Origin: Leptospirales bacterium
GTDB taxonomy: Bacteria > Spirochaetota > Leptospiria > Turneriellales > JAOUFE01
Assembly: GCA_040326155.1 (NCBI GenBank)
Contig: JBEQLE010000034.1
Location: 1 to 43,134 of the forward strand
Direction of reading: 5' to 3'
Length of the DNA stretch: 43,134 nucleotides
A model generated the notes under the pieces. That model saw nothing but the letters and a program-made list of their open reading frames with translations, searched no databases and was not told the origin of the DNA. Below are positions 183-43,134 of the stretch, piece after piece; within the stretch, counting starts at the first letter, position 1; the number at the start of each line of letters is the position of its first letter. The translations under genes and the position numbers were made by a program.

Positions 183-461
183 TTAATATGCTTTATCTCT
201 GATTTCAAAGGAAGTTATTGATATTACTTTGTCGGCTTTATCAATTTCATAGAAAAGACGATAATTTCCAATTCTGTATCGCCAGGTAGGGGGTTCATAG
301 TTTTTGAGTTTCTTTATATTGGGCCCATAAAATGGATTTTGTTTCATTTGTGGATATACATAGTTTAGTAGCTTTTCATACATTTTATTTCTTAGATCTG
401 CTTGAATATTGTCAATATTAGAAATGAAAGTGTCAGTCTCAAATATTTTATACTCAAACAA
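183..461 (-). CDS. relE: RelE/ParE-family type II toxin
   Basis: IKKLKNYEPPTWRYRIGNYRLFYEID RelE-type motif; likely TTG start at 461 overlapping the antitoxin stop, with GGAAGAGG upstream. Confidence 0.85.
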   Translation of the reverse strand: MFEYKIFETDTFISNIDNIQADLRNKMYEKLLNYVYPQMKQNPFYGPNIKKLKNYEPPTWRYRIGNYRLFYEIDKADKVISITSFEIRDKAY

Positions 462-693
462 ACCGACCTCTTCCATTCTTGGCATCTTGGCTACCCTTCT
501 TGAGTTGTTTCACTAGAGAAGAATTATTCAGTATTTCACTCATTTCAAATTCATCTACAACTTCTATATCCTCAACATATCTTAAAGTTGCCGTCTCAAT
601 AAAATTTGAAATGGAACGATTTTCTATTTTCGCATGTTGCTTCAACCTTTTCAACAAACTTTCATCGATTCTTAATGTAACAGTTTTTGACAT
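454..693 (-). CDS. Ribbon-helix-helix (CopG/DUF6290-like) antitoxin
   Basis: MSKTVTLRIDESLLKRLKQHAKIENRSISNFI RHH pattern, acidic C-terminal half, directly upstream of and overlapping the toxin. Confidence 0.85.
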   Translation of the reverse strand: MSKTVTLRIDESLLKRLKQHAKIENRSISNFIETATLRYVEDIEVVDEFEMSEILNNSSLVKQLKKGSQDAKNGRGRFV

Positions 694-719
694 AATTTTC
701 CCCTTTATCTGATAATACC

Positions 720-748
720 AAAATAATGCTATTATACTGCGATGTCAA
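720..748 (-). promoter_or_regulatory. sigma70-type promoter of the relBE-like operon
   Basis: TTGACA (748-743), 17 nt, TATTTT (725-720) on the minus strand. Confidence 0.6.
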
Positions 749-807
749 CAAATTATTACAATGTAAACGTTTGCAATACAAAGTAATATCCAAAGAGGCA
801 CTTTTTT

Positions 808-882
808 TCCGCATAACGTTTTGGGGTTTCCGTAGTCAGTAGGGAATGGCTACGCCATTCCTAACGAGCACCAATTAACCTC
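808..882 (+). repeat. Deleted copy of an attC-like hairpin element (homologous to 42763-42860)
   Basis: TCCGCATAAC then ACGTTTTGGGGTTTCCGTAGTCAGTAGGGAATGGC-TAC-GCCATTCCTAACGAGCACCAATTAACCTC; aligns nearly base for base with 42763-42860 apart from the hairpin loop. Confidence 0.8.
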
Positions 883-1108
883 AAGTTTGTGAATGGAAAG
901 TAGTTTTACACATCCTATGGAAAATAGAAATGCACATAAACATCAGAAAATAGCAGTGCATTAGGCGCAAAAAATAGAATCTTTTTGAACACGAATTATA
1001 CTAAAAATGAGGACTATAAACGACAATAAATATGTCGCTAAAATTCAAAAGTTAACTTTTTATTCAGTATTCAAAAACAGAGAATGATTTGCTTTACAAA
1101 GTTCATAC

Positions 1109-1414
1109 CTAACCCTTCATTATTAAAACTTCTTCTTTTTTAGATTTCGATCCCCTTGGCCGTACTTTAATTTCGAGTTCCATTCCGATGCTGTCCAAAT
1201 ATTTTCTTAGTGTAGATATTTTGATATCTTTGCGATTTTCTATTTTGGAAATACTGGACTGGGCGAATGCATCAATGTCGACTTGTTTGATACCCATGTA
1301 TTCTCTCAATTCTGCGAGTGGAATATTCAAGATCATTGATTTGGTATTCTCTTCTGCAACACCGGTTCTACTTGCAGATAATTTCGTTTTAATATTTTCT
1401 TTTGCTTTTTTCAT
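1109..1414 (-). CDS. XRE/HTH antitoxin-like regulator (HigA-type), orphan
   Basis: LAELREYMGIKQ...QSSISKIENRKDIKISTLRKYLDSIGMELEIKV, typical Cro/C1 HTH antitoxin. Confidence 0.8.
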   Translation of the reverse strand: MKKAKENIKTKLSASRTGVAEENTKSMILNIPLAELREYMGIKQVDIDAFAQSSISKIENRKDIKISTLRKYLDSIGMELEIKVRPRGSKSKKEEVLIMKG

Positions 1415-1418
1415 ATCA

Positions 1419-1485
1419 TTACCTCAAACTATCCAAATATTTCTTATAAAACTTTTCAGCAGTAGGAATCAATTTTCATAGAATT
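1419..1485 (-). pseudogene. C-terminal remnant of a HigB/Gp49-like (RelE-superfamily) toxin
   Basis: Reads KFYE/(frameshift)/KLIPTAEKFYKKYLDSLR* and ends 4 nt before the antitoxin ATG; resembles the FYxKLIPxAxxLY C-terminus of such toxins. Confidence 0.55.
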
Positions 1486-1525
1486 TAAAATATGGATATT
1501 CCGTTAAGGGAATATCCATATTTTA
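1486..1525. promoter_or_regulatory. Perfect 17-bp inverted repeat, probable TA operator
   Basis: TAAAATATGGATATTCC-gttaag-GGAATATCCATATTTTA. Confidence 0.6.
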
Positions 1526-1549
1526 TGAATAAGTTTCCTGATTCTCAGT

Positions 1550-1918
1550 TCAATTTAGAAGTCTGGCAATAGATATATCAAATACTTTCGCCAGCTTTCT
1601 AGCCATATCTAAAGAAATATTTCGTCTATCATTTTCCAAATCAGAAATATATTGAATACTTTTCTTTACTTTTTCTCCAAGTTGTGATTGCGATAATCCT
1701 GAATTTTCTCTATAGATATGAATAACTTTTCCAGGGCTTGTTCCCTCAATAATTTCATTAAACCACTTTGATTGTGTAGCCAAAACAATCTCTTCTCCAT
1801 CATCATTTAATATCTTTACTGACTTCTTGAAAGCCTTACTCACGGCAGTTAAAATATCGTTTGGGATATCACCCTTCATTTCAATTTTCGCATTTTTAGT
1901 TTTAACAAGTACTTGCAT
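1550..1918 (-). CDS. HigA-like antitoxin with C-terminal XRE HTH
   Basis: PGKVIHIYRENSGLSQSQLGEKV...YISDLENDRRNISLDMARKLAKVF; AGGAGA RBS; downstream of a toxin gene. Confidence 0.85.
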   Translation of the reverse strand: MQVLVKTKNAKIEMKGDIPNDILTAVSKAFKKSVKILNDDGEEIVLATQSKWFNEIIEGTSPGKVIHIYRENSGLSQSQLGEKVKKSIQYISDLENDRRNISLDMARKLAKVFDISIARLLN

Positions 1919-1941
1919 TATATCTCCTTACAAAATTATAA

Positions 1942-2208
1942 TTAATAGGGCGCACCCTCACGACTCCCAACGTAATGCACTTCGATAATAATACTTTCAT
2001 TTTCGGTTTTCCAACACGCCACCCAACTGTACGATAGATGGCAATGATGTTCATTATGTCCAAGCTTACTATAATTCGGCCATTTGTTTTGTACTGGACC
2101 ATTTTCATTAATATCAAGCACTAACTGAGCAAATTTTTCTTGCTCCCTTTGTGGCATCTTTCTAATACTTTTCTCCAGTTTTTTCTTCCACCCAACTGTA
2201 TATGCCAC
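1942..2208 (-). CDS. HigB/RelE-family toxin (toxin-first TA)
   Basis: GPVQNKWPNYSKLG..EHHCHLSYSWVACW...IEVHYVGSREGAPY; start moved to GTG 2208 because the TTG at 2244 is the -35 box. Confidence 0.8.
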   Translation of the reverse strand: MAYTVGWKKKLEKSIRKMPQREQEKFAQLVLDINENGPVQNKWPNYSKLGHNEHHCHLSYSWVACWKTENESIIIEVHYVGSREGAPY

Positions 2209-2214
2209 ATAAAG

Positions 2215-2244
2215 AGTATACCATACCATGTGGTATACCGTCAA
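2215..2244 (-). promoter_or_regulatory. Promoter/operator of the higBA-like operon (near-leaderless)
   Basis: TTGACG, 18 nt, TATACT, 6 nt before GTG; TATACCA/TGGTATA inverted repeat overlaps the spacer. Confidence 0.65.
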
Positions 2245-2361
2245 CTATATTGTATGGTTCAATATATATAAATTGCCGGATTGTTCCTCGACCTGTTTAT
2301 TTGCAGATCGTAGATACCGGAGTGGGGATTTCCCCGACAAAAGTATAAAAGGGGGAGCGTA

Positions 2362-2409
2362 GACTGTTTTTATAAGGGTACAAGATCTTGTGCCCTTATA
2401 AAAACAGTC
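2362..2409. repeat. 48-bp near-perfect palindrome (REP-like)
   Basis: GACTGTTTTTATAAGGGTACAAGA|TCTTGTGCCCTTATAAAAACAGTC, one mismatch. Confidence 0.85.
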
Positions 2410-2578
2410 GGTGCGGGGGGAAAATCGATAAAACATGGTGGGGAAAAAACCATCTTTTCCCCGCATGGTAGTCTTGCATTGGTGTGGAATTTCATACCTA
2501 ATAGAGACTACCAACGAGCTTTTTCTATTTTTATGGAATTTTAGTTGACGAATATTCTATAATAGAGGATTTTAGAGT

Positions 2579-3115
2579 ATGAATCCATTATATATAAAAG
2601 CGTTTCACATTGTTTTTCTGGTTACATGGTTTGCAGGTCTGTTTTACATCGTCCGGCTGTTTATTTACCATGTGGAGGCGGGTAAAAAGAGCCCTTCCGA
2701 AAAAGAGATTTTACAAAATCAGCTTATTATTATGGCTGAACGTTTATGGTATATTATTACATGGCCCGGAATGATTTTAACTGTTTTGTCGGGCAGTTTT
2801 TTACTCTATTTACAATCCTGGATGTTGAGTTCGCCGTGGTTGCATATTAAGCTTACTTTGGTGTTGTTATTGATTGTTTATCATTTCAGCATCGGCAGAA
2901 TATTAAAAAACCTACGGAAGGGGATCGTTGAGTATAAATCGCAAAAGCTTCGCTTGTTTAATGAACTTCCAACTGTTTTTCTATTTGCGATTGTTTTTTT
3001 AGCAGTATTAAAAAGTACAATGAGTCTTTTAGTTGCTTTAGGCGGCTTGCTGGCATTGATGGTGATCTTGATGGTGGGGGTGAAGTTTTATAAAAAAGCC
3101 AGAGAAAGTAAATAA
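2579..3115 (+). CDS. hemJ: Protoporphyrinogen IX oxidase HemJ (UPF0093/CopD-like membrane protein)
   Basis: IKAFHIVFLVTWFAGLFYIVRLFIYH, MAERLWYII, WLHIKL and LRLFNELPT motifs. Confidence 0.9.
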   Translation: MNPLYIKAFHIVFLVTWFAGLFYIVRLFIYHVEAGKKSPSEKEILQNQLIIMAERLWYIITWPGMILTVLSGSFLLYLQSWMLSSPWLHIKLTLVLLLIVYHFSIGRILKNLRKGIVEYKSQKLRLFNELPTVFLFAIVFLAVLKSTMSLLVALGGLLALMVILMVGVKFYKKARESK

Positions 3116-3119
3116 GAAA

Positions 3120-4025
3120 TTGAATAAGAAGACTGTGGAGAAAAAAGTTTTCTTAACAGGGGCGACCGGGTTTATAGGGTCGCAGGTATTAGAAGTTCTT
3201 GTGCGGAGCGGATACCATATTTGTGCTCTCTACAGAAATGAAAAAAAAATTCCAGAGCAGTTGCGTTTTCATAAGAAGATCGACTGGGTTCAAGGTGAGT
3301 TCACCGATTTTACTTCCTGGAAAGAAAAAATTTCAGGTAACCATATAATTATAAACTGCGTTGGAATTATTCGAGAAAAGAAGGGTTCCACCTTTCAGGT
3401 GGTTCATACCGATATTCCGGGGCACATGATGAATGAAGCGCAGCATGCTAAAGTTTCTCATTTTATTCAAATTTCAGCTCTCGGCGCCGGTTCGGACGAG
3501 TCCATTCGTTATTTTCATACAAAAAAAGTAGCCGAAGACTTTCTTGTTCAATCTGGAATTCGTTATACAATTTTTCGTCCTTCTTTTGTGTTTTCTTACA
3601 ACTCAGAGGCTATGAGGCTTTTTCGTAAACTTGCTATGTTGCCTTTGACTCCGGTAATTGCAGGTGGTGAATATAAGTTTGAACCTCTTTTTGTGGGTGA
3701 TCTTGCTCAGGCTGTCTGTGAGTCGATTTTCAAAAAAAAATCGTGGAATAAAATTATAGAAGTGGGCGGCGCCGAAGTTTTAACTTATAAAGAAATTCTT
3801 AGAATGTTGGCCAGACTCGAAAGCAAAAATATTACGACGGTATCGATTCCATTTTGGATGGCAATGCCCGGGGTAGCCATAGGGCAGTATTTTTGGTTTT
3901 TTCCTATTACGGTTGACCAGTTGAAAATGTTGATACGTGGCAGCGTTTGCAAGAATAACGAAATGCAAAAAATCTTTTCAATACAAGCAACGTCTTTTGA
4001 AGAAGGGCTAAGTCTGTCGAAATGA
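3120..4025 (+). CDS. Atypical SDR / NAD-dependent epimerase (NDUFA9-like)
   Basis: TGATGFIG Rossmann motif, ISALGA, YFHTK (YxxxK), IFRPS. Confidence 0.85.
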   Translation: MNKKTVEKKVFLTGATGFIGSQVLEVLVRSGYHICALYRNEKKIPEQLRFHKKIDWVQGEFTDFTSWKEKISGNHIIINCVGIIREKKGSTFQVVHTDIPGHMMNEAQHAKVSHFIQISALGAGSDESIRYFHTKKVAEDFLVQSGIRYTIFRPSFVFSYNSEAMRLFRKLAMLPLTPVIAGGEYKFEPLFVGDLAQAVCESIFKKKSWNKIIEVGGAEVLTYKEILRMLARLESKNITTVSIPFWMAMPGVAIGQYFWFFPITVDQLKMLIRGSVCKNNEMQKIFSIQATSFEEGLSLSK

Positions 4026-4067
4026 TTTTCGATAGACTTAGAAGGGCTGAGTCTGTCGAAATGATTT
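4001..4067. repeat. 28-bp direct repeat (period 39) with an embedded hairpin
   Basis: AGAAGGGCTRAGTCTGTCGAAATGATTT at 4001 and 4040; TAAGTCTGTCGAAA/TTTCGATAGACTTA stem at 4009-4040. Confidence 0.85.
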
Positions 4068-4112
4068 CCCACAAATTCGATTTTGAATGACGGTTGGTAA
4101 AGCTCTTATCCT

Positions 4113-5849
4113 GTGTCCTTTATGGTTATTCGAAAACTTTCCGATCTTGTTGTTTCTCAAATTGCCGCAGGGGAAGTTATTGAGAGTCCCGCCGGCGCTG
4201 TTAAAGAAATTCTCGAAAATGCCCTTGACGCAAAAGCCGATAAAATTGAAATATTTTTACGCGGTGGAGGCCTTGAAAGTATTCAGGTTCGCGACAACGG
4301 AACGGGCATGGGTAAAGAAGATTTACCGCTGGCCGTTGAAAGTTTTGCGACAAGTAAGATTGAAAAACTCGACGATTTGTATACGGTGCGGTCGATGGGC
4401 TTTCGCGGCGAGGCTTTAAGTTCCATTTGTTCGGTCTCGAGGGTAAGTATTGAGTCAAAAACAAAAACAGCCAAAAATGGTTGGAAAATTGTTGCTGAAG
4501 CTGGGAATATTTCACCGGTTGAAGCGTGTCCATTCGGGGATTCTGGAACCAGAGTCATTGTCGATAATCTATTTTTTAATGTTCCTATACGAAAAAAGTT
4601 TCTAAACAGCGAGAAAAAAATTCGCAGAGAAGTTCAGGAAATAATTACTTCTTATGCGCTGGCCTGGCCGAGTATTTCGTTTACATACAACCAGGAAGGA
4701 AAAGAGATATTTCGGTTTCCCGCTAAAGAGAACCTTCTTGATCGTGTTGCCCAGGTGTTTGGTATGGAATTTAACACTCGGTTGTTGCCGGTATATGTGG
4801 AAGAAGAGGGTCATACGCTAGAAGGCTATATTTCGGGTCTCGATTTTTTCCATTCTCATAATTCATTTTTACGGTTTTTTATTAATAAGAGAAAAGTTTT
4901 TTATAAACCACTTACGTCCATTTTAAGAAGGGCTTATGGCGAGCTATTACCTCCGGGAAAATATCCCGCCGCTGTTTTGTTTTTAAACACAGATACCGAA
5001 GAACTCGATGTAAATGTTCACCCTCAGAAAAAAGAGGTGAAGTTTAAAAACCCCGAACAAGTGGAGAGAAAAGTTTATCTGGCGATAAAAGCGGCAATAG
5101 AAGGCGATGGAAATATTCCTTCCTCTCATTTTATAAAGACAACAGAGAGGGTTGCCAAAAAACACCAGACTGTTTACGAGCAGGGTGATCTGAATTTACG
5201 GCCCCCGCTTGTGGTAAAAGATGGAACGCCAGATCTGGAGTATGGCGCTCCAGTGGAGAACGAAGTTTTGGGGCGTCCTTCCACTATTCATGGGACATTG
5301 TACGACACGCTGGTTATGGCCAGCTCCCCCGAAGGTATATATTTAATCGATCAACACACCGCTCACGAAAGAATACGATACGAAGAGATTTTGGCCAAAC
5401 TGGAAACGTCTGAACCGCCCCGGCAGGCGCTTATGGATCCGGTGAGTTTTTACCCCTCACCCGAAAAAATAGAAGCGCTTTTGGAAGGGACACCGATTCT
5501 TGAAAAGCTTGGTTTTGAATTCGAAGATCTCGGTCCGGCCGGGTATCGGCTGGCGGCGGTCCCTTCCTATGTTCGTTCCGGCGAAGAAGAAAATTCTTTA
5601 GAATTGGCATTAAGTCTGCTCGACAAAGATATAAATTTAACGCCCGCGCAACTTTTTGATCGTCTGGCAAAATCGATGGCTTGCCGCTCGGCCATTAAAA
5701 AAGGGGACTCTGCCACAACGTATGAGCTTTCTCGTCTGATTGAAAAACTGTATAAGTGCAAGAATCCGGCAAGGTGTCCGCATGGAAGACCCACTGTTAT
5801 ATTTATGGGCAAGAAAGATCTTTTTGGTTTTTTTAAACGGGAGGTTTAA
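4113..5849 (+). CDS. mutL: DNA mismatch repair endonuclease MutL
   Basis: IAAGEVIE, GFRGEAL, DVNVHPQKKEV, DQHTAHERIRYE and CPHGRP motifs; start may be ATG 4122. Confidence 0.97.
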   Translation: MSFMVIRKLSDLVVSQIAAGEVIESPAGAVKEILENALDAKADKIEIFLRGGGLESIQVRDNGTGMGKEDLPLAVESFATSKIEKLDDLYTVRSMGFRGEALSSICSVSRVSIESKTKTAKNGWKIVAEAGNISPVEACPFGDSGTRVIVDNLFFNVPIRKKFLNSEKKIRREVQEIITSYALAWPSISFTYNQEGKEIFRFPAKENLLDRVAQVFGMEFNTRLLPVYVEEEGHTLEGYISGLDFFHSHNSFLRFFINKRKVFYKPLTSILRRAYGELLPPGKYPAAVLFLNTDTEELDVNVHPQKKEVKFKNPEQVERKVYLAIKAAIEGDGNIPSSHFIKTTERVAKKHQTVYEQGDLNLRPPLVVKDGTPDLEYGAPVENEVLGRPSTIHGTLYDTLVMASSPEGIYLIDQHTAHERIRYEEILAKLETSEPPRQALMDPVSFYPSPEKIEALLEGTPILEKLGFEFEDLGPAGYRLAAVPSYVRSGEEENSLELALSLLDKDINLTPAQLFDRLAKSMACRSAIKKGDSATTYELSRLIEKLYKCKNPARCPHGRPTVIFMGKKDLFGFFKREV

Positions 5850-6004
5850 TTGTGGTTAACGCGGTTTTTGTGTGGTAAGTGTTTTTGGCAATGAATGCAG
5901 AAATTCGAGAGACTTGGCCATCCTGGGCTCGTAAGATAAAAATATTGACAAACTCTATAGATATGTCATATCAGTTTTATATTATTTTAACAAGGAATGT
6001 TTTT

Positions 6005-6547
6005 ATGCCTATGAACCAAATTAAATTTTCTATAAATATGATTATCTTTTACTTTTTTACGACACTTTTTATGTTTAATTGCAAAGAAAAAGTTAGTTCG
6101 CCCCTTGATATTAATGCAATGGCGGCAAGACAAAGTTCAACAATAGGTGAGTATTCCAGGTTATTTAGAGTAGATAAATCTGCAAAGCTTTCAAATGGTC
6201 AATATATCATCTTGAATGTTGTCAACATTCAAAAATTTCAGGAATTCAAAACAAATGACAATAAAATTCTTCGTAATGCAGTTGTAATAGAAAATGTAAC
6301 TCCCGTTAACGATGCTCGTGAATACATAAATACAGTTGGTTTCTTCAATTTGTTAGATGACTATGCCAATTCAAATTCTGATCTTGATTGGTATGTTCAA
6401 AGCGGCAAGGAAAATACAGAAATTATATTGTCATTTAAAGAGGATATTAGCAAATATAAATACTTGGTAATCGGTGGAATGGATAAAGAGACTAACAATG
6501 GCAATTTTACAAAAATATTCCCAATTAAAATGTTAGTCGATAGGTAA
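6005..6547 (+). CDS. Hypothetical lipoprotein
   Basis: Hydrophobic N-terminus ending LFMFNC (spirochaetal-type lipobox); ATG 6005 or 6011 preferred over GTG 5879. Confidence 0.6.
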   Translation: MPMNQIKFSINMIIFYFFTTLFMFNCKEKVSSPLDINAMAARQSSTIGEYSRLFRVDKSAKLSNGQYIILNVVNIQKFQEFKTNDNKILRNAVVIENVTPVNDAREYINTVGFFNLLDDYANSNSDLDWYVQSGKENTEIILSFKEDISKYKYLVIGGMDKETNNGNFTKIFPIKMLVDR

Positions 6548-6774
6548 TGATATTTTCTTTAGGGAATTACAAAGACTTATTGAAAAAATGTGAATATGAG
6601 TTCGTAGCTTTGGATAATTGTCAAAGCCATCCTGAATATGATTTTACCCTATTTAATATTGTTGTTTCTATAAACCATTTATTCGATTGGTATTTAAATG
6701 ATACAAATTTATCCTCTAAGTCAAGGTTAAAATGTATAGAGTTATTCAATCAATGGCAAAATTTCTCAGTTTGA
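6547..6774 (+). pseudogene. Short hypothetical ORF, possibly 3'-truncated
   Basis: Coupled to the upstream stop; LFNIVVSINHLFDW helical motif; ends after 75 aa into non-coding DNA. Confidence 0.4.
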
Positions 6775-6931
6775 AAGTACAAACCAACTCGGCCTCCCCT
6801 ATTGTTGGTACTTATCAGGAAAGTTGTTTGTAAGAAATGCCGGGATAAAACGAAATGCAAAGATTGTGTATTTTTTGGCAGAGTAAGTACAAAAAATGCC
6901 AAGCTGTTAAAAACAATAATTAAATAGTATA

Positions 6932-6969
6932 TTAGCTCGAAGGTTCAATCAATCGCGCCTTCGAGCTAA
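6932..6969. terminator. Hairpin between convergent genes
   Basis: TTAGCTCGAAGG-N14-CCTTCGAGCTAA perfect 12-bp stem; no clear U-tract. Confidence 0.45.
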
Positions 6970-7001
6970 CCAGAATGTATTAAGCAATTAAATGTTTTAA
7001 A

Positions 7002-7607
7002 TTATTGAAGGAACTCTATACGATTTATATTACTTAATTTAATATAAACACCTTTGCCAGGTATGCGATATTTTGTTTTGAGTTTCTCATCGACACATTC
7101 AGCTTCGGCAATTAATAAATCAACTTCATCTGGAAAATTTGGATTATAAGTATAATCTTTTATGTATCCTAGATATCTAGTTTCATCAGACAGAATAAAA
7201 ATTCCCCATTGATTATCTTTTTGTAATTTCACCCATAGAACATCAGGTTTTGTACCTAGAAAATCTAAATCATATTTCTTAGCTATATATAATCTTAACT
7301 TTAAGAAGCCAACCCTCACGTATCCAAAAAGTATAGCAGAACCATATAAGTAAAACGACAAAATATAATTTATCGAATTCGATCCAAAAAAGTCAATAGA
7401 ATAATCGGAATTACCAATAATATTTAATTTGAAATAATGATTTAGTACGTAGGCTGTTGATACGATGAACAAACTAGCGACAAAACTATATAAAATCCTA
7501 GCAAAGTCTCGGTCTTTTCTCGCAGGAAAGAATCTTCTATAAATTTCTAGAAATAGAAAGCCTGGTAGCAAATAGAAAAAAGCTACAATGATATCAGGAA
7601 ATTTCAC
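7002..7607 (-). CDS. DUF6338-like membrane protein
   Basis: N-terminal LLPGF motif, three TM segments, C-terminal soluble region (YLGYIKDY...DLLIAEA...GVYIKLSNINRIEF). Confidence 0.7.
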   Translation of the reverse strand: MKFPDIIVAFFYLLPGFLFLEIYRRFFPARKDRDFARILYSFVASLFIVSTAYVLNHYFKLNIIGNSDYSIDFFGSNSINYILSFYLYGSAILFGYVRVGFLKLRLYIAKKYDLDFLGTKPDVLWVKLQKDNQWGIFILSDETRYLGYIKDYTYNPNFPDEVDLLIAEAECVDEKLKTKYRIPGKGVYIKLSNINRIEFLQ

Positions 7608-7783
7608 TAATTATTCTTGCGCCTAGTTGGTGTGTTAGTCTTGGGTTTTGCGGGTTTTGGTTGAGTCGGCTTTATTGTCTCATATGATGGTCTTTCTGTA
7701 TTAGGTCTCGGGTTTGTATGCACATTTGATTTCTCTACATCTTCCCTATATATCTGAGTTATTTTATTTGCTTTTTCTGCCAT
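7607..7783 (-). CDS. 58-aa Pro/Lys-rich small protein (not in the ORF track)
   Basis: AGGAGA RBS, ATG 7783, MAEKANKITQIYREDVEKSNVHTNPRPNTERPSYETIKPTQPKPAKPKTNTPTRRKNN*; its TAG overlaps the GTG of the next gene. Confidence 0.75.
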   Translation of the reverse strand: MAEKANKITQIYREDVEKSNVHTNPRPNTERPSYETIKPTQPKPAKPKTNTPTRRKNN

Positions 7784-7974
7784 TTAAATCTCCTATATGT
7801 AACAATAGTATGGACAATATACTGGAATTCGACTAAAAAAGACAAGCATTTTTTCACTTAACATTGTATATTCCAATACGCTTCCGTCATCCCGGTCTTC
7901 ATTGGTGTAAATGGTGCTATTTCAATAAAAGACAAAGAGGTGCTCCTGCCAGCGCCTGACAAATTTTCATCTGC

Positions 7975-9081
7975 TCAGTCGCGAGCGCGCGCCTTCGGGC
8001 CACCCGGATTCTGTTTGATTTCTTTGTGCAATGCCTTTAGTAATGTATGAGCAGGAGCCCCTTTTAATTCACTAAGGTACGCAGTTGCCATGGCTAAATT
8101 TTTTAAGATATTTTCCATATAGGGAATATTGGCCAGGGCCCACGCGCGTTCAGCAAGTTGAAATTTTTCCGCAGCTTTTTTGGCTGCCGGCCTGACTTCT
8201 TTGGGTTCCATAAAGTCACAGGGAACCAGAGAGAATACTTCGTCCACTTCACATTCTGTTATTTTTGAAAATGCCTGTACTGCATGCACCGTTGCTTCCG
8301 TAGCCATGTGGTAACTGTTTTGTTTCTCTTTATCTCGCCATTGGTCCCGGTTTAGAATTATTTCATAACAAACTTCTTCTGTAGAGCGCGCGCTTTTATG
8401 TATTAAGCCATGCCCGTCTGGCAGGCGATAGCAAAGCTGTTCGCCATTTGGTACTTCTTTATCAAAATAACTCGGGGGCAAAAGCCATTTGATAAAAGCA
8501 TCTGTAACTTTTTTCAACTCCAGCGCTATATTCATGTACCATATATCTTCTGTTAATACAGGTCTTGTCTTTTTGTTTGTTTTATGCTTCGCTGTTTTAA
8601 TTGCGGGTGGCTCAGAACTTCGCGAGATTTTTGTAACAGGTTTCGGTTGGACCGGAACAATAGGTTTCGGTTGGACCGGAACAATAGGTTTCGGTTGGAC
8701 CGGAACATCTTTCTTGCCTGTTTTTTTCTCGAACTCTTTTAAAAATTCATCCAGACCGCACCACCTGCCAGATTTAACAGTTGCCAGTTTTTTATGGGCT
8801 AAACAGTCGCATTTATATGTAGAAGGATTGGGGCACAGGGCGATTAAGCGTTTTAGTTCATCCCAGGCTTCCCGGCTACATGGTTCCTCGTAATAGTTCC
8901 AACTTTCATCTCCGGGTGGTCCCCAACGTTGTTCGGTATAGATACCAACTCCATGAAATTGACAATGGGGACATCCGGTTAGATTCATTGATCTCTCATC
9001 GCAATATCCATCATATGGCAATTCCAGAGAGGTGTTTGCCATGGATACTGTGGCGTTACATTTTGAACATTTAGAAGCCAT
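7975..9081 (-). CDS. Hypothetical protein: Cys-rich N-terminal domain, Pro-rich linker, helical C-terminal domain
   Basis: CSKC...CPHC...CPNPSTYKCDCLAH; (VPVQPKPI)x3 linker; ATG 9081 is the likely start. Confidence 0.75.
   Translation of the reverse strand: MASKCSKCNATVSMANTSLELPYDGYCDERSMNLTGCPHCQFHGVGIYTEQRWGPPGDESWNYYEEPCSREAWDELKRLIALCPNPSTYKCDCLAHKKLATVKSGRWCGLDEFLKEFEKKTGKKDVPVQPKPIVPVQPKPIVPVQPKPVTKISRSSEPPAIKTAKHKTNKKTRPVLTEDIWYMNIALELKKVTDAFIKWLLPPSYFDKEVPNGEQLCYRLPDGHGLIHKSARSTEEVCYEIILNRDQWRDKEKQNSYHMATEATVHAVQAFSKITECEVDEVFSLVPCDFMEPKEVRPAAKKAAEKFQLAERAWALANIPYMENILKNLAMATAYLSELKGAPAHTLLKALHKEIKQNPGGPKARARD
8638..8707. repeat. 24-bp in-frame tandem repeat x3
   Basis: AGGTTTCGGTTGGACCGGAACAAT repeated; encodes VPVQPKPI on the minus strand. 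Confidence 0.95.
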
Positions 9082-9107: not shown

Positions 9108-9671
9108 TTAACAAAACCGGTTGTAGAATTCTATTTTAGTGTTAAGTCGATTCGCCAATATTGTATTTGCTTTTCCTAAAGATTGAAGTATAACCGACGC
9201 TTCGGCTTTATATTTCACAATTTTATCTTTTTTCCAATGGGAGGGCGGGGGCTGGAGGTTTGTAATTCGATCTGCCAGTTTCACCATCCAGACTTCCTCG
9301 GGTTGTTCTTTAATTCTAGTAAGACTATCCTGCATTTTTTCTTCTTTCGTTTTGAATTGACTATTCTTGGTTAATGCCAAAACACCTGAAGCAACGGCTT
9401 TTCCAAATTCAGTTTCAATAGTTTCATACGTAATTTCAGTATCCTCAATTGTATCGTGCAATAAAGCGCATTGAACTGCTAAATCTGGTTTTTGAATGGA
9501 CTTACTTTGTGCAATGGCGCTTATTACTTCCATGGCTACATTTGATATATGATTAATATAGGGTATATCGGAACCGGGAATAGATTGCCCGTTGTGTGCT
9601 TTACATGCAAAATTCCATGCTTGAATATATTTATCTTGATTCCACATAGCCGTCATCTTTCCATAATACAT
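9108..9671 (-). CDS. HD-domain protein, RelA/SpoT-type small alarmone hydrolase (Mesh1-like)
   Basis: AHNGQ..PYINH, ALLHDTIEDT, VKLADRITNL; start may be 9656 or 9647. Confidence 0.85.
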   Translation of the reverse strand: MYYGKMTAMWNQDKYIQAWNFACKAHNGQSIPGSDIPYINHISNVAMEVISAIAQSKSIQKPDLAVQCALLHDTIEDTEITYETIETEFGKAVASGVLALTKNSQFKTKEEKMQDSLTRIKEQPEEVWMVKLADRITNLQPPPSHWKKDKIVKYKAEASVILQSLGKANTILANRLNTKIEFYNRFC

Positions 9672-9959
9672 ACATATATTTTACATTGGAGCGAACTGGG
9701 GCCGTTGGTCAAGTTAAAAATGGTTTTGTTTTCATTCGAAAATAGTTATATTACAGAAAATTTAGAAAATTATATTTATAGATAAGAAATAATACCCTAT
9801 CTGCATGCCGATAATAATTATAGGAGTAATATACCAGAATAATGTGACGTTATTGAATTCCAATACGCCTGAAAGATAGATTATTCATGGTATTTTCGTT
9901 GTTAAAAAAGATTTTATGGTGAATCGATCAATTAATACGTCTAATAAAAGAAAAAAAAT

Positions 9960-38960: not shown

Positions 38961-40874
38961 TTATTTATAAGATCTCTGACTTAGTTTAACATTTTTGAAA
39001 ATTAATTTTTCTTTGTTAAGCTTTGGCGGTTTTGTATCTCCGGTGTATTCCCACGCCGATACGTAGTTGAATTTTTTATCGTTTCGCAGAGCTTCGCCCT
39101 CTTTTGTCTGGTGCTCCAGCCGGAAGTGTCCACCACAGGACTCGTCTCGTTGCAACGCATCTACAGCCATTAACTCGCCGAGTTCCAGAAAGTCAGCCAC
39201 TCTCTGGGCTTTTTCCAGAGATTCATTTAAGTGATTCGCTTCACCGGGAATTTTTAAATCTTTATAGAACTCTTTTTTCAGTTTTTTAATTTCACTGATC
39301 GCTTTTTTAAGCCCTTTTGCCGTTCTTGCCATGCCTACATATTCCCACATAATATGTCCAAGTTCTCTATGAAACTCGTCTGGCGATTTTGTTCCCTGAA
39401 TAGAGAGGAGTTTTTCAATATTCTTTTTAATTTTCTCTTCAGATTTTATAAATTCTTTATGGTCGGGCTGGACTTTTCCGAATCCTTGTTTTGCCAGAAA
39501 ATTTCCGACGGTATAGGGTAGAACAAAATATCCGTCGGCCAGTCCCTGCATTAACGCGGAAGCTCCAAGTCTGTTTGCTCCGTGGTCTGAAAAATTTGCT
39601 TCGCCAAGTACAAAAAGACCAGGTATGGAACTCATCAGGTTATAATCGACCCATAAACCGCCCATTGTATAATGAGCTGCCGGGTAAATTTTCATCGGGG
39701 TTTCGTATGGGTTATCTCCTGTAATAGTTTCATACATTTCGAATAAATTTCCGTATTTAGATTCAATTTCATCATCTCCCAGACGAGAGATGGCTTCGGC
39801 AAAATCAAGATAGACTGCTTTACCGGTCGGGCCTACGCCGTGTCCTTCATCGCATACCTCTTTAATGTTTCTTGCGGCCACGTCGCGCGGCACGAGGTTT
39901 CCGAAAGATGGATATTTTCGTTCCAGAAAATAGTCTCGTTCTTTTTCGGGTATGTCGTTTGGACGGCGATTCTCTCCTGTTTTTTTGGGAACCCAGATGC
40001 GTCCGTCATTTCTTAGACTTTCGCTCATGAGTGTTAATTTAGACTGGTAATGCCCCGAAGCGGGTATGCAGGTCGGGTGAATCTGAGTAAAACAAGGGTT
40101 GGCAAAACCGGCCCCTTTTTTATAGGCTCTCCAGGCGGCTGTGGCATTGCAGCCTTTGGCGTTTGTTGACAAATAATAGACATTGCTGTAGCCTCCGCCT
40201 GCCATAATTACGGCGTGACCGGAATATGATTTAATTTCACCGTTAATTAAATTACGTACAACGACGCCTGCGGCTTTTTTATTGATAACGACAACATCGA
40301 GCATTTCATGGTAAGGGTAGCACTTGACCTTGCCTTTGTAAATTTGACGGTTCAACGCTCCGTACGCGCCAAGTAGAAGTTGCTGCCCGGTTTGCCCTTT
40401 GGCATAAAACGTTCTGGAAACCTGAGCGCCTCCAAAAGAACGGTTATCTAAAAGACCTCCGTATTCACGGGCAAAAGGGACTCCCTGAGCGACACACTGG
40501 TCGATAATATTTTCGCTGACTTCGGCCAGTCGGTACACATTCGCCTCTCGCGAACGAAAGTCACCACCTTTGACTGTATCGTAAAACAGGCGAAATACGT
40601 TGTCACCGTCATTCTGGTAATTTTTAGCAGCGTTGATTCCGCCTTGCGCGGCAATGGAGTGGGCTCGTCTGGGGCTGTCGTTGTATGTAAATACAGTGAC
40701 GTTATAACCAAGTTCGGCCAGAGAGGCGGAGGCCGAAGCTCCGGCAAGTCCGCTACCAATTACAATTATATCAAACTTTCTTTTATTCGCAGGATTCACC
40801 AGCTTCATATCGAATCTGTGTTTATTCCATTTCTCATCGAGCGGACCATCGGGTATATTTGAATCTAATTTCAT
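38961..40874 (-). CDS. sdhA: Succinate dehydrogenase/fumarate reductase flavoprotein
   Basis: [39 protein letters not shown]. Confidence 0.96.
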
Positions 40875-40887
40875 TTAATAATCCTTT

Positions 40888-41562
40888 TTACCCATTATAA
40901 ATTATAATAGGAATAATGGCAAACGTGAAGGGTACTGCAAGCGCATACACATAGCCTGCAATTTTTATAAAAATTGTATATTTTTCATGCCTTAAACCCA
41001 GTGATTGAAAAGTGCTTTGTACGCCGTGAACCAGGTGAAACGAGAGAAGCCCCATACTGGCTACATAAAATAGAACCCAGTAGATATTGGAAAACTCATA
41101 CACTACCGCGTCGTACATGGTGCCCGAACCTTCCATTATTCGGTGATCCCAGAAATAAGACTTTAGATGCAAAACTAAAAATATTAGAATGATACTGCCT
41201 GTGTGACGCATATTCCGGGAAAACCAGGTACTTCCACGGGCCGCTTTTTGCATGGCGTAACCTTCTGGTCTGGCTTTTTTATTTTCAATCGACACTTTTA
41301 TGGTCAGGCCGATATGCACGAATAAACCCATAAATAAAAGAACTTCGATAGCCCGCATCAAAACGCTGGACAACAAAGCTTCACCATATGCATTAAACGA
41401 AGCCCCGCCATCGTTATTTAACAATAACAGGTTTCCATACAAGTGTACCAGTAAAAAAGCAATAAGAAACAACCCGGTAAAGGCAACGATAAATTTTTTA
41501 CCGACGGAAGTTCGAAAAATATCGATAATCCATTTCATGTGTGTTGATAACATCTGATTCAA
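40888..41562 (-). CDS. sdhC: Succinate dehydrogenase cytochrome b subunit (5-TM b558 type)
   Basis: SVGKKFIVAFTG..FLLVHLYGN, FVHI, LVLHL, FHLVHG heme-ligand histidines; start uncertain. Confidence 0.92.
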   Translation of the reverse strand: MNQMLSTHMKWIIDIFRTSVGKKFIVAFTGLFLIAFLLVHLYGNLLLLNNDGGASFNAYGEALLSSVLMRAIEVLLFMGLFVHIGLTIKVSIENKKARPEGYAMQKAARGSTWFSRNMRHTGSIILIFLVLHLKSYFWDHRIMEGSGTMYDAVVYEFSNIYWVLFYVASMGLLSFHLVHGVQSTFQSLGLRHEKYTIFIKIAGYVYALAVPFTFAIIPIIIYNG

Positions 41563-41730
41563 CTTTACATGAGCAACTGTTTTTCTTTAGTTAACAAAAA
41601 AATCCTGCGGTTTTCGTTTATTGCGTCAAAAACTCCTGCGGGTTTTTGACGTCGTTTCTTTCGACTATCTTTTGAAGTGTTTTGCTCGCCCAAAAGCGTG
41701 GTTTTGGGTCAACCGGCATTTCTAATTGTC

Positions 41731-41838
41731 GCTGGACACCATGAGGTATATGACGCCGATCTGAGCCAGTACTTTGACACAATCCCACACGATAAGTTGA
41801 TGAAACTTATCGCCTTACGGATAAGTGACAAAGCGGTT
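41731..41838 (+). pseudogene. Fragment of group II intron reverse transcriptase (RT domain 3)
   Basis: Translates AGHHEVYDADLSQYFDTIPHDKLMKLIALRISDKAV; no start codon and no RT context either side. Confidence 0.85.
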
Positions 41839-41929
41839 AAGCGAAAGTAGCCCCAAAATGTGGTTGAGCTATTTGCGAGACCTGAGCGACCGCGTAGTCG
41901 GGCGCGAACAGATAAAATTTGTTATCGGA
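41839..41929 (+). repeat. 3' half of an attC-like hairpin element
   Basis: AGCCCCAAAATGT (41849-61), CAGATAAAAT (41909-18) and GTTATCGGA (41921-29) are reverse complements of three blocks at 42738-42775. Confidence 0.7.
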
Positions 41930-41945
41930 TGTTGGCTTTTTGTTA

Positions 41946-42368
41946 TTATACCGCTACAATATTTTCTTTTAAGACATCTTCAATTTGTTCTATTCTTTTT
42001 AATGTAGGATTGGATGAGGAAGTATTTTCATAACGCTGGTAACTTTGATATTTTATATTGAGTAATTCTGCCATTTCACTTTGCGTGTAGCCTTTTTCAT
42101 TTCTTTTTAATCTCAACCAAATAGCAAAGGCGACATTTTTATGGGGTGCAATGGAATGGACATTTTTTCCATTCAGTTTTGAAAACTTTGGTAAATGTAT
42201 ATTTCTTGCATCAATTGAAGCTAGATAACCGGTTAAGGCTTCTTTTGCAGCAGTTAATGCAACTTCCAATGTATCCCCAAATGTATGACATCCTTCTAGA
42301 TCAGGGAATTCTACATTGTAGCATAAGTCCTCTTTATCATATTCAATTATTGCTGGATAAGAAATCAT
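41946..42368 (-). CDS. hicB: HicB antitoxin with C-terminal XRE HTH
   Basis: YPAII...YNVEFPDLEGCHTFGDTLEVAL..AKEAL, followed by an HTH. Confidence 0.92.
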   Translation of the reverse strand: MISYPAIIEYDKEDLCYNVEFPDLEGCHTFGDTLEVALTAAKEALTGYLASIDARNIHLPKFSKLNGKNVHSIAPHKNVAFAIWLRLKRNEKGYTQSEMAELLNIKYQSYQRYENTSSSNPTLKRIEQIEDVLKENIVAV

Positions 42369-42544
42369 TTTAAACCACCTAGCTTTAGTATCTTATTTAA
42401 TGTTCCTTTTGGTAGATCTTTTTTGCCATGAACTGGAACTACTAAGGTTTTGTTACCTTTTATCATAATGTGATGCGAACCATTAATTCTATCTAAGCTC
42501 CAATCATTGGCTTCAAGTAGTTTTAATAGTTGTTTTCCACTCAC
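42365..42544 (-). CDS. hicA: HicA mRNA interferase toxin (59 aa, not in the ORF track)
   Basis: GTG start: MSGKQLLKLLEANDWSLDRINGSHHIMIKGNKTLVVPVHGKKDLPKGTLNKILKLGGLK*; GSH motif; ATGA overlap with hicB. Confidence 0.93.
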   Translation of the reverse strand: MSGKQLLKLLEANDWSLDRINGSHHIMIKGNKTLVVPVHGKKDLPKGTLNKILKLGGLK

Positions 42545-42549
42545 GAATT

Positions 42550-42578
42550 AAAATACAACATTTATGCTGTGTTGTCAA
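42550..42578 (-). promoter_or_regulatory. Leaderless promoter and operator of hicAB
   Basis: TTGACA, 17 nt, TATTTT, 5 nt before GTG; ACAACA-N9-TGTTGT inverted repeat in the spacer. Confidence 0.7.
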
Positions 42579-42737
42579 CTATTTATATACGGTGGTATGA
42601 AACTTGTTGATTTAAAAATAGCTTGAAAAAGAAAATAATAATCAATGCAATTAAACTCCAATAGAATATAAAGACATAGAGTATCCAGATATAATTATCA
42701 GACAGTAAATTCGCGCAGTGAAATAAAAAAGTAAATT

Positions 42738-42890
42738 TCCGATAACGTTTCGATTTTATCTGACGTTTTGGGGCTTCCGTAGTCAGCAGGGAGTGGCCCC
42801 AGAATTTGTCTTACAAATTCCGGCCGAAGGGCCATTTCTAACGAGCACCAAACTAACCTCCCGTAGGCTTTGGCTATTTGCCAAAGAGTT
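42738..42890 (+). repeat. 5' half of an attC-like branched hairpin element
   Basis: TCCGATAAC-GTTTCG-ATTTTATCTG-ACGTTTTGGGGCT followed by nested hairpins (GAATTTGT/ACAAATTC, CTTTGGC/GCCAAAG); homologous to 816-882. Confidence 0.72.
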
Positions 42891-43134
42891 TAGAAAATAT
42901 GGGTGTAACAAATTTGTTTTGACAGGTATCGTGTACCCGAAAGAATAATTCGAGAACATGCGAATTAACGCAGAAACTACCGCACCGTAATAGCCCCTTC
43001 TTCTTTGCCAAAAAACAATAAGAAAGTTAAAACCGATAAAATCGACGCACAGCATTTTATCAGGGCCATCATAGATCGCTCCGATCGGCGTTGCAGAAAA
43101 GTTCTCTATAAATTAATCCACAAGGGCAAACATA

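Follow-up and report, generated by a model that had tools for sequence, protein, structure and literature searches.

In a 43,134-nt contig of a Leptospirales bacterium (GenBank assembly GCA_040326155.1, contig JBEQLE010000034.1; this whole stretch is called the window below), the toxin-antitoxin gene pair hicAB is enclosed by nested inverted blocks close to the right end. According to our analysis, hicAB is very likely one gene cassette of an integron-like gene-capture system. The original prediction, which was made from the letters of the window alone, had described the pair as packaged in an integron-like cassette with a long, branched site resembling the attC sites of integrons. Its observation of nested blocks is confirmed, and the integron-like interpretation is supported by a family of structured sites in the same genome, by the complementarity of cassette ends, and by large arrays in related genomes.

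A family of branched sites around hicAB

Three pairs of inverted blocks are nested around hicB and hicA. The 13-nt blocks AGCCCCAAAATGT (41849-61) and ACGTTTTGGGGCT (42763-75) are complementary at 12/13 positions, CAGATAAAAT (41909-18) and ATTTTATCTG (42753-62) at 10/10, and GTTATCGGA (41921-29) and TCCGATAAC (42738-46), by direct reading, at 9/9. The antitoxin gene hicB (41946-42368, minus strand; 140 aa) combines a HicB-like N-terminal part (Pfam: PF15919, 3.5e-11) with a DNA-binding domain (HTH_3, Pfam: PF01381, 7.8e-11), and overlaps by 4 nt with the toxin gene hicA (42365-42544, minus strand; 59 aa; Pfam: PF07927, 2.5e-19). This arrangement, a HicA domain adjoining a HicB with a DNA-binding domain, is that of the type II toxin-antitoxin system HicAB. 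No tyrosine recombinase gene was found on the window's contig, in agreement with the earlier remark that the window contains no integrase.

Our search for further copies covered the assembly of this organism (G000; 171 contigs, given as C1 and so on, 94.66% complete and broken at repeats) and the genomes of 40 relatives (given as G001 and so on). When the flanks of hicAB were compared by BLAST with the 171 contigs, many matches were obtained for both arms and none for hicAB. Elsewhere in G000, the sequences that form the right and left arms in the window adjoin each other and make up a single structured unit. Because the two arms are copies of a repeat family, the nested-block pattern lies far beyond chance. 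A hidden Markov model (HMM) of seven copies detects 107 fragments on 48 of the 171 contigs (E≤0.01), so that the dispersed family bounding unrelated genes that had been proposed does exist; with end-specific HMMs, we count 38 AAC-side ends (score ≥13) and 55 GTT-side ends (score ≥12.5). The suggested scan of the genome and its relatives with a covariance model was productive as well: model R1, built from seven copies, has 42 matches in G000 at E≤0.001 and matches in 14 of the 40 relatives. The latter include all three genomes of family f1, both genomes of f7 and 9 of 20 genomes of f6; no R1 match was found in the other sampled families.

Read on the plus strand of the window, the first half of the unit runs from ...T-AAC through a 6-nt spacer, a 10-nt L arm and a 13-nt stem arm into a variable apical hairpin. 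The second half consists of the returning stem arm, two side hairpins, the returning L arm, a 2-nt spacer and GTT-A.... In most G000 copies the returning L arm contains one extra base, and the resulting 1-nt bulge of the L stem could act as an extrahelical base. The AAC/GTT triplet is common to all copies. From AAC to GTT the unit spans about 175 nt in G000 (146-190 nt among copies without insertions), and this agrees with the original description of an element longer than a typical attC; published attC sites measure roughly 57-141 nt. Folded as DNA, one full copy reaches -46 kcal/mol (z -8.0) and forms a three-way junction with two side hairpins. The unit has in common with attC the imperfect palindrome R''-L''...L'-R', the conserved AAC/GTT and the preservation of fold rather than sequence, but it shares neither the typical size nor the unbranched stem.

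The fold is reflected in the pattern of substitutions. Among the seven copies, 15 of the 52 predicted pairs are altered on both sides; in a set of 44 distinct copies, drawn from G000, the relatives and two named records of metagenome-assembled genomes (MAGs), the same is true for 54 of 60 model pairs. In this set 92.8% of the cells pair, as against 34-42% with the partners slid, and none of 500 shuffles reaches the covariation values. Between genera the L stem is wholly rewritten, with AAC/GTT unchanged. Compensatory changes across copies also keep the side hairpins (model pairs 128-148 and 152-172; covariation helices 9-11). The original prediction had recognized these hairpins, and in this respect it stands; the GNA-type loops which it ascribed to them are less well founded. 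Taken alone, the left-arm side hairpins (41862-41908) have a z of -1.0, 34 of 200 shuffles fold equally well, and the minimum-energy loops comprise 5 and 6 nt; a reading with a GNA loop (C-GTA-G) is possible.

Complementary cassette ends and one-way arrays

Exchange at G|TT predicts that the sequence just outside the GTT of a site is complementary to that just outside the AAC of the next site, but not to the corresponding sequence of the same site. Ten adjacent pairs can be tested in G000, and they score 2, 3, 3, 3, 5, 7, 7, 8, 9 and 9 of 10, i.e. five of them reach 7/10 or better. In the background of 2,090 possible pairs, only 2.0% reach at least 8 and 0.24% at least 9, and none of 18 same-site pairs reaches 7. 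The ends of the hicAB cassette in the window are complementary at 9/9 positions, and those of the hicAB cassette in the relative G012 at 17/18. The most extensive data come from G018, an assembly of two contigs that is 99% complete. Among its 173 adjacent pairs, 144 are complementary at 11/12 positions and 24 at 10/12 (168/173 at ≥10/12), compared with means of 5.95 for the 174 same-site pairs and 5.70 for all 30,276 pairs. Complementary cassette ends, as they had been predicted by analogy with the G|TT of integrons, are thus supported in G000, G012 and G018, and they do not extend across single sites.

In G018, positions 1-4, 6, 7 and 9-12 after GTT vary from cassette to cassette and yet match the partner in 90-100% of the pairs, and position 5 is always G. 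At position 8, a G lies opposite T in 171/173 pairs, which is equivalent to an A-C mismatch on the other strand; the same G-versus-A difference occurs in matching pairs of G000 and G012.

The G018 array comprises at least 174 full-length sites, all on one strand, over a stretch of 178 kb, and it continues at the end of this stretch. The median unit measures 806 nt (range 457-9045) and the median site 206 nt; the first site is located about 440 nt from the start codon of a tyrosine recombinase. A subfamily of 458-nt cassettes is represented by 54 sites throughout the array, and the homology among its copies extends from the AAC of a site, through the site, until just before the next AAC. It follows that a unit comprises a site together with the sequence beyond it, and from this the polarity of the array can be deduced. 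When read on the other strand, a unit consists of a gene or spacer and then a site, pointing away from the recombinase gene. At the start of the array, the boundary between non-repeat sequence and the first cassette falls exactly on GTT (...AATAAAC|GTTGCCC...), and internal junctions read ...AATCAAAC|GTTGCCC.... The geometry of G018 is integrase, attI, then cassettes, as in an integron. In G018, G012, G009, G013 and G001, a recombinase gene lies next to a co-oriented array with attI and points away from it. At the sdh locus, the contig ends inside the array.

For G000, the polarity is based on the transfer from G018 and on a few shared sequences after GTT. If this transfer holds, the array lies on the minus strand of the window and hicAB is in forward orientation; the site belonging to hicAB would then be the truncated left one, and the recombinase side would be on the right, beyond an insertion sequence (IS). 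The original prediction had assumed an inverted toxin-antitoxin cassette with its own promoter. The inversion is not borne out under the G018 polarity, but a promoter-like site is indeed located within the cassette, just upstream of hicA (42578-42550, minus strand; TTGACA-17-TATTTT, 10/12, by consensus match only). Relatives of hicAB lie between sites in G012 and G019 too, in the same position and orientation.

These observations bear on two simpler interpretations. The units could represent a miniature inverted-repeat transposable element (MITE) or a selfish repeat resembling repetitive extragenic palindromes (REP), i.e. palindromic units of about 175 nt which transpose by themselves and flank hicAB by chance. 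Against this speak the 174 co-oriented copies in a single array adjoining a recombinase, the repeated units that take in adjoining genes, and flanks that are complementary across the intervening genes instead of across the unit. Furthermore, MITE terminal repeats with target duplications were the outcome that the original prediction named as fatal to its proposal, and no direct target duplication exists at the unit ends. The distribution over 48 contigs, often as single copies, the inverted terminal similarity and the fact that the sites are targeted by other mobile elements would be in accordance with a MITE, but we consider this explanation highly improbable. Alternatively, the strong covariation and the position of the sites downstream of open reading frames (ORFs) could point to transcribed RNA genes or to terminator or insulator modules, where covariation results from the folding of RNA. 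Rfam matches in the region 40800-43134 at E≤10 are limited to two at chance level (a miRNA family and IsrM), and neither the complementarity of cassette ends nor the attI junction nor the repeated cassettes are accounted for by RNA folding. As the sole explanation, structured RNA is contradicted by these data and hardly conceivable; an additional RNA role may exist.

The array-linked recombinase and its presumed substrate

Four tyrosine recombinases are encoded in G000, one of which is an ordinary XerD. The search for an IntI-like recombinase, recommended in the original prediction, revealed a candidate outside the window, a protein of 352 aa at C12:8247-9305, whose homologues head arrays in relatives. 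Homologues of this C12-type gene are located beside sites in G001, G009, G012, G013 and G018 and in two named MAG loci, one of them titled Turneriella sp., and these occurrences span three families; in G019 the homologue lies on the same contig as the sites, 24 kb away. Altogether, 13 of the 14 element-bearing relatives possess a homologue, and the exception is an assembly that is 77% complete. The records of its nearest relatives carry the titles Leptospiraceae, Spirochaetota and Turneriella, which fits the spirochaete-like genome that had been suspected. The XerD on C106, 1.2 kb from a small array, was also considered as a partner and rejected; it is the ordinary XerD (356 bits, over the cut-off), not an array-heading gene.

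In terms of sequence, the recombinase remains below every NCBIfam cut-off (XerA NF040815, 206/220 bits; XerC, 184; IntI TIGR02249, 181.8/265). Its best sequence matches among solved structures are the archaeal XerA proteins 4a8e and 5hxy (141.5 and 112.5 bits), followed by VchIntIA in two pieces. It has 13 residues in place of the 54 of VchIntIA and thus lacks the IntI-specific domain with the I2 helix; in our alignment this insertion is present in IntI1 and the Shewanella IntI, and absent from 11/11 array-linked proteins. The structure model (predicted local distance difference test score 82.4) has no helix at residues 256-278, the place of I2, but it displays a helical N-terminal extension, which comprises about 80 residues and is conserved. 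The best fold match of the model is 2a3v.

The tree of 28 proteins places 10 of the 11 array-linked proteins in one clade (support 99/98). Together with IntI and the XerA-like enzymes, the array proteins stand apart from XerC/D (100/100), and all three groups share a C-terminal ...SPL tail that XerC and XerD lack; the tree does not fix an order among the three. The array recombinase resembles archaeal XerA (4a8e, 5hxy; NF040815) most closely in sequence, but XerA resolves chromosome dimers at dif, has neither an N-terminal extension nor a cassette array, and is separate from the clade of the array-linked proteins.

In family f8, a neighbouring family of the same class, four of seven genomes (G034, G035, G036 and G039) carry a homologue with 37-38% identity and give no R1 match; their sites may have diverged or be absent altogether. 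No R1 match was found in six loci of other phyla beside distant recombinase relatives, and no array-like repeat family in four loci beside distant relatives (the distant set includes Flavobacteriaceae, Pacearchaeota and one Leptospiraceae MAG). Locus L053 (Candidatus Pacearchaeota) contains a relative of the array recombinase, a XerA-like gene that is preceded directly by two 60-nt direct repeats (8778-8837 and 9652-9711), which are 95% identical and 874 nt apart.

Could the sites belong to an ordinary integron, or to a cluster of attC sites lacking integrases (CALIN)? They would then be no more than long attC sites whose canonical IntI was recently lost or is missing from the assembly, and the Xer-like gene would be a bystander. 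The AAC...GTT layout with its R and L stems and variable tip is indeed that of attC, G000 is 94.66% complete and broken at repeats, and excerpts of a survey describe CALINs without IntI as common, one of them with 114 sites (PMC4889954). Even so, the TIGR02249 cut-off is reached in 0/41 genomes, including assemblies of two and three contigs at 99% completeness. It is the XerA-like gene that heads the array, and about 170 nt upstream of where this gene starts there is a junction of the attI type; such a gene stands beside sites in genomes of three families. An ordinary integron is, in our view, distinctly improbable.

A second alternative is recombination of duplex DNA of the Xer/dif type, in which R arm, spacer and L arm (11-6-11) would form a dif-like site, the cassettes would correspond to pdif modules, and no folding would be involved. 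The absence of I2 and the resemblance to XerA, an enzyme that acts on duplex dif, are compatible with this possibility, as is the similarity of the arm and spacer sizes to the 28-bp dif site. It leaves the covariation through the central stem and the side hairpins without a role, though, and the sites of the arrays have one orientation, as opposed to the alternating orientation of pdif modules. Moreover, R-stem position 8, where G invariably faces T, confers a strand asymmetry which matters only in a folded strand. For these reasons, duplex recombination appears unlikely.

The mechanism that we propose for the integron-like system can be described as follows. The mobile unit would be composed of one or few genes and then one large recombination site (about 175 nt here, about 206 nt in G018), which in single-stranded form would fold into a branched hairpin. 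This folded site would contain an R stem (AAC/GTT plus 9-12 cassette-specific pairs), a spacer with 6 nt facing 2, an L stem of 10-11 bp, a long central stem with a variable tip, and the two side hairpins. Exchange would occur at the AAC/GTT triplet; in that case, the neighbouring cassette contributes the outer part of each R stem in an array, and complementarity arises between the opposite ends of a single cassette. The catalyst is most likely a dedicated tyrosine recombinase whose gene (C12:8247-9305 in G000) heads the array in divergent orientation, and folded single-stranded DNA would, judging from sequence, be the substrate of this enzyme.

Several points weigh against this interpretation. 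It is built on assembled sequences, in which no recombination event was observed, neither circles nor empty sites, and the covariation alignment (A3) was fitted to the model and hence leans towards the structure. In G000 the site clusters are small and scattered, and the cassette ORFs run in both directions. Five of the ten adjacent pairs in this genome do not match; two of them follow a small insertion at GTT, and the pair on C81 still fails when the insertion is allowed for. On its upstream side, the recombinase gene is 256 nt from the end of contig C12, so that its linkage to an array in G000 is presumed. A homologue of the recombinase also occurs in 10 of the 26 relatives in which R1 has no match, and in the MAG locus L044 no sites were found within 10 kb. 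In G021, an assembly of three contigs, the clusters (C3 133864-169929 and 3734370-3803406) are about 0.8 Mb distant from the recombinase (C3:2926096-2926911), in contrast to the adjacent layout in G018 and G012. Finally, the I2 helix is held to be necessary for attC recombination in passages of two publications (PMC7790495, PMC9668308), and an enzyme without I2 that acts on folded DNA would therefore be without precedent. Parts of these and of a third publication regard the gain of the insertion as the step from duplex to single-strand substrates (PMC9668308, PMC7790495, PMC4792948).

We further hypothesize that a second lineage of integrons exists in spirochaetes related to Leptospira, either ancestral to the IntI integrons or parallel with them. 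In this lineage, a XerA-like recombinase without I2 would act on branched, folded single-strand sites of 175-235 nt in arrays of more than 170 cassettes; the strand would be chosen by the G-T pair at R-stem position 8 and the 6/2 spacer, not by extrahelical bases, and the N-terminal domain would replace I2. To this hypothesis as a whole, we give about even chances of being correct.

Decay, cargo and comparison with known systems

Both sites of the hicAB cassette in the window are damaged. On the left, the hicB-side half of the attC-like site that the G018 polarity assigns to the cassette survives (41829-41931, minus strand; nhmmer match to model positions 93-195), with the stem A arm (41849-61), the two side hairpins (41862-41908), the L arm (41909-18), the 2-nt spacer and the R arm GTTATCGGA(TG) (41921-31). 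According to the alignment with full copies, the half-site meets unrelated sequence at about 41828. On the right, the next attC-like site, which belongs to the neighbouring cassette on the recombinase side, was delimited by alignment with uninterrupted copies on C98 and C161 (42733-42892, minus strand). Its R arm TTTCCGATAAC (42736-46) is the start of the hicAB cassette and is followed by the 6-nt spacer (42747-52), the L arm (42753-62) and the stem A arm (42763-75); the apical region (42776-42892) holds an extra insertion, and the remainder of the site is missing. The closing GTT arm had been expected merely beyond the end of the contig. Instead, an IS110-family remnant with internal deletions interrupts the site at 42892/42893; it lies in the apical hairpin and reaches the contig end (42893-43134, plus strand).

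The remnant consists of four pieces with 97-100% identity to C100:34524-35636. It is the full copy on C100 that displays the features of the IS110 family, namely a protein of 369 aa with a DEDD transposase domain (Pfam: PF01548, 2e-14) and a Transposase_20 domain (Pfam: PF02371, 8e-18); the window has deleted pieces only. An IS110-family element occupies one and the same apical-hairpin position in two different sites, i.e. in the window (42892/42893) and on C16 (~8915), and this identical insertion point suggests a sequence-directed targeting of the sites by the element. The hicAB cassette is probably frozen in the window, as its own site has lost the outer half and the neighbouring site is split by the IS.

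A short reverse-transcriptase relic abuts the left half-site (41730-41828, plus strand; ORF 41677-41850, weak RVT_1 match, E 0.13). A group II intron was considered for this flank and rejected, for the relic has about 35 residues and no further copy in the genome (tblastn). The 31 nt at 41708-41738 (plus strand) are identical to C12:9523-9493, just upstream of the recombinase gene, and to C1:61-91; C12 and C1 have 69 nt in common here, containing repeated ATTCTAATTGTCG motifs. This segment may be a fragment of an attI region at the far end of the window's array. The adjacent stretch 41581-41705 is an unrelated dispersed repeat of about 125 nt, with two 31-nt tandem units and a 10-bp hairpin (41624-41651); dozens of copies occur elsewhere (C66, C108, C114, C146, C103, C87, C160 and others), and it could be REP-like or resemble a terminator. 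The site family is represented by two more fragments in the window, at 808-892 (plus strand) and 7950-7999 (minus strand), in opposite orientations and about 7 kb apart; in the former, AAC directly joins the stem arm and the L arm is missing.

The mix of cargo in G000 is typical of chromosomal integrons. Seven small arrays provide 26 ORFs, 15 of which have no Pfam match at E≤1e-4; the matched ones include AAA_15/AAA_21 ATPases, a TetR-plus-hydrolase pair, a CAAX-type protease, HupE/UreJ, a core protein of extracellular contractile injection systems, a ParA-like ATPase and IS110 transposases. The AAA_15/AAA_21 cassette ORFs, of the AbiEii/OLD-like kind, are located at C106:7202-8965 and C104:26190-27491 and are possibly anti-phage cargo. 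By analogy with toxin-antitoxin cassettes in the chromosomal integrons of Vibrio, a role which part of one publication describes (PMC13108822), hicAB probably stabilises its array. A MITE of about 95 nt with inverted ends of the GAGKCTGTAGAAT type is inserted exactly after the GTT of a site at four loci, and a longer, ORF-bearing relative at two (C58:1188, C81:13176, C21:355, C83:4628, C91:428 and C159:14007 for both together). Three of the four MITE insertions are followed by another GTT on the far side. With this family, a second mobile element is seen to target the point of crossover.

Among known systems, the sedentary chromosomal integrons come closest, with the superintegron of Vibrio cholerae (IntIA, attIA and attC sites of the Vibrio cholerae repeat type, VCR) as the example. 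Each combines a recombinase gene that points away from a one-way array with an attI-type junction located at GTT. The cassettes, more than 170 in number, contain one or few ORFs plus one AAC...GTT imperfect palindrome; the R-stem ends are cassette-specific, the sites of a genome are near-identical, toxin-antitoxin pairs occur among the cassettes, and the cargo is mostly unknown. In contrast to the superintegron, the recombinase described here has an N-terminal extension instead of the I2 insertion, and the sites measure 173-206 nt and are branched, with two side hairpins, a spacer of 6 facing 2 and an invariant G-T pair in the R stem. The sites of G000 and the window also resemble CALINs in forming small clusters with no IntI nearby; CALINs, however, are defined by the standard attC model, while in the relatives a dedicated non-IntI recombinase heads large arrays. 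In the supplementary table of Cury et al. 2016 (PMC4889954), the single Turneriella genome screened is listed with NA for CALIN, In0, complete integron and N_attC. This entry lends indirect support to the original suggestion that standard attC models might miss such sites.

Systems that depend on Xer proteins offer partial parallels. The attP(+) site of the CTX phage is a folded single-strand hairpin recombined by XerCD, which lacks the I2 helix; its stem mimics a two-arm site with an unpaired centre, and the chemistry is thus feasible. Unlike the arrays, this is a phage integration site used once at dif, not a set of cassettes with its own recombinase. The pdif sites are 28-bp duplex sites in alternating orientation. 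Small gene modules bounded by recombination sites, toxin-antitoxin pairs included, are a common feature of the present system and the pdif modules of Acinetobacter, which lie between XerC/XerD sites according to parts of one report (PMC7399989); folds of about 175-206 nt, a single orientation and a dedicated recombinase distinguish the sites described here.

In an extract of an earlier study, Treponema is named as the only spirochaete clade with integrons (PMC3607928). Among CC-licensed PMC papers and bioRxiv, we found no description of such arrays and no paper on Turneriella and integrons together; for attC, integron and Leptospira combined, no title or abstract pointed to such arrays. For the definition of an integron we relied on IntegronFinder and on Messier & Roy, as cited in a section of PMC9668308. 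Measured against it, the system works like a sedentary chromosomal integron and departs from it in two respects, the IntI insertion and the size and shape of attC. A recombinase that lacks the domain defining integron integrases, together with large branched sites, makes a second kind of integron probable.

For the window itself, the cassette reading explains the nested inverted repeats that bracket hicAB, and it portrays a cassette caught in decay, one of whose bounding sites is truncated and the other split by an IS. The wider significance lies in the fact that integrons are defined and searched for by the very insertion that is held necessary for folded attC. If the interpretation is true, current tools undercount cassette arrays and gene pools, including defence-like and toxin-antitoxin cargo. 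The spirochaete arrays would then also be a source of new, longer and highly specific structured recombination sites, and they would provide a living comparison for the step from duplex recombination (Xer) to folded-strand recombination (IntI).

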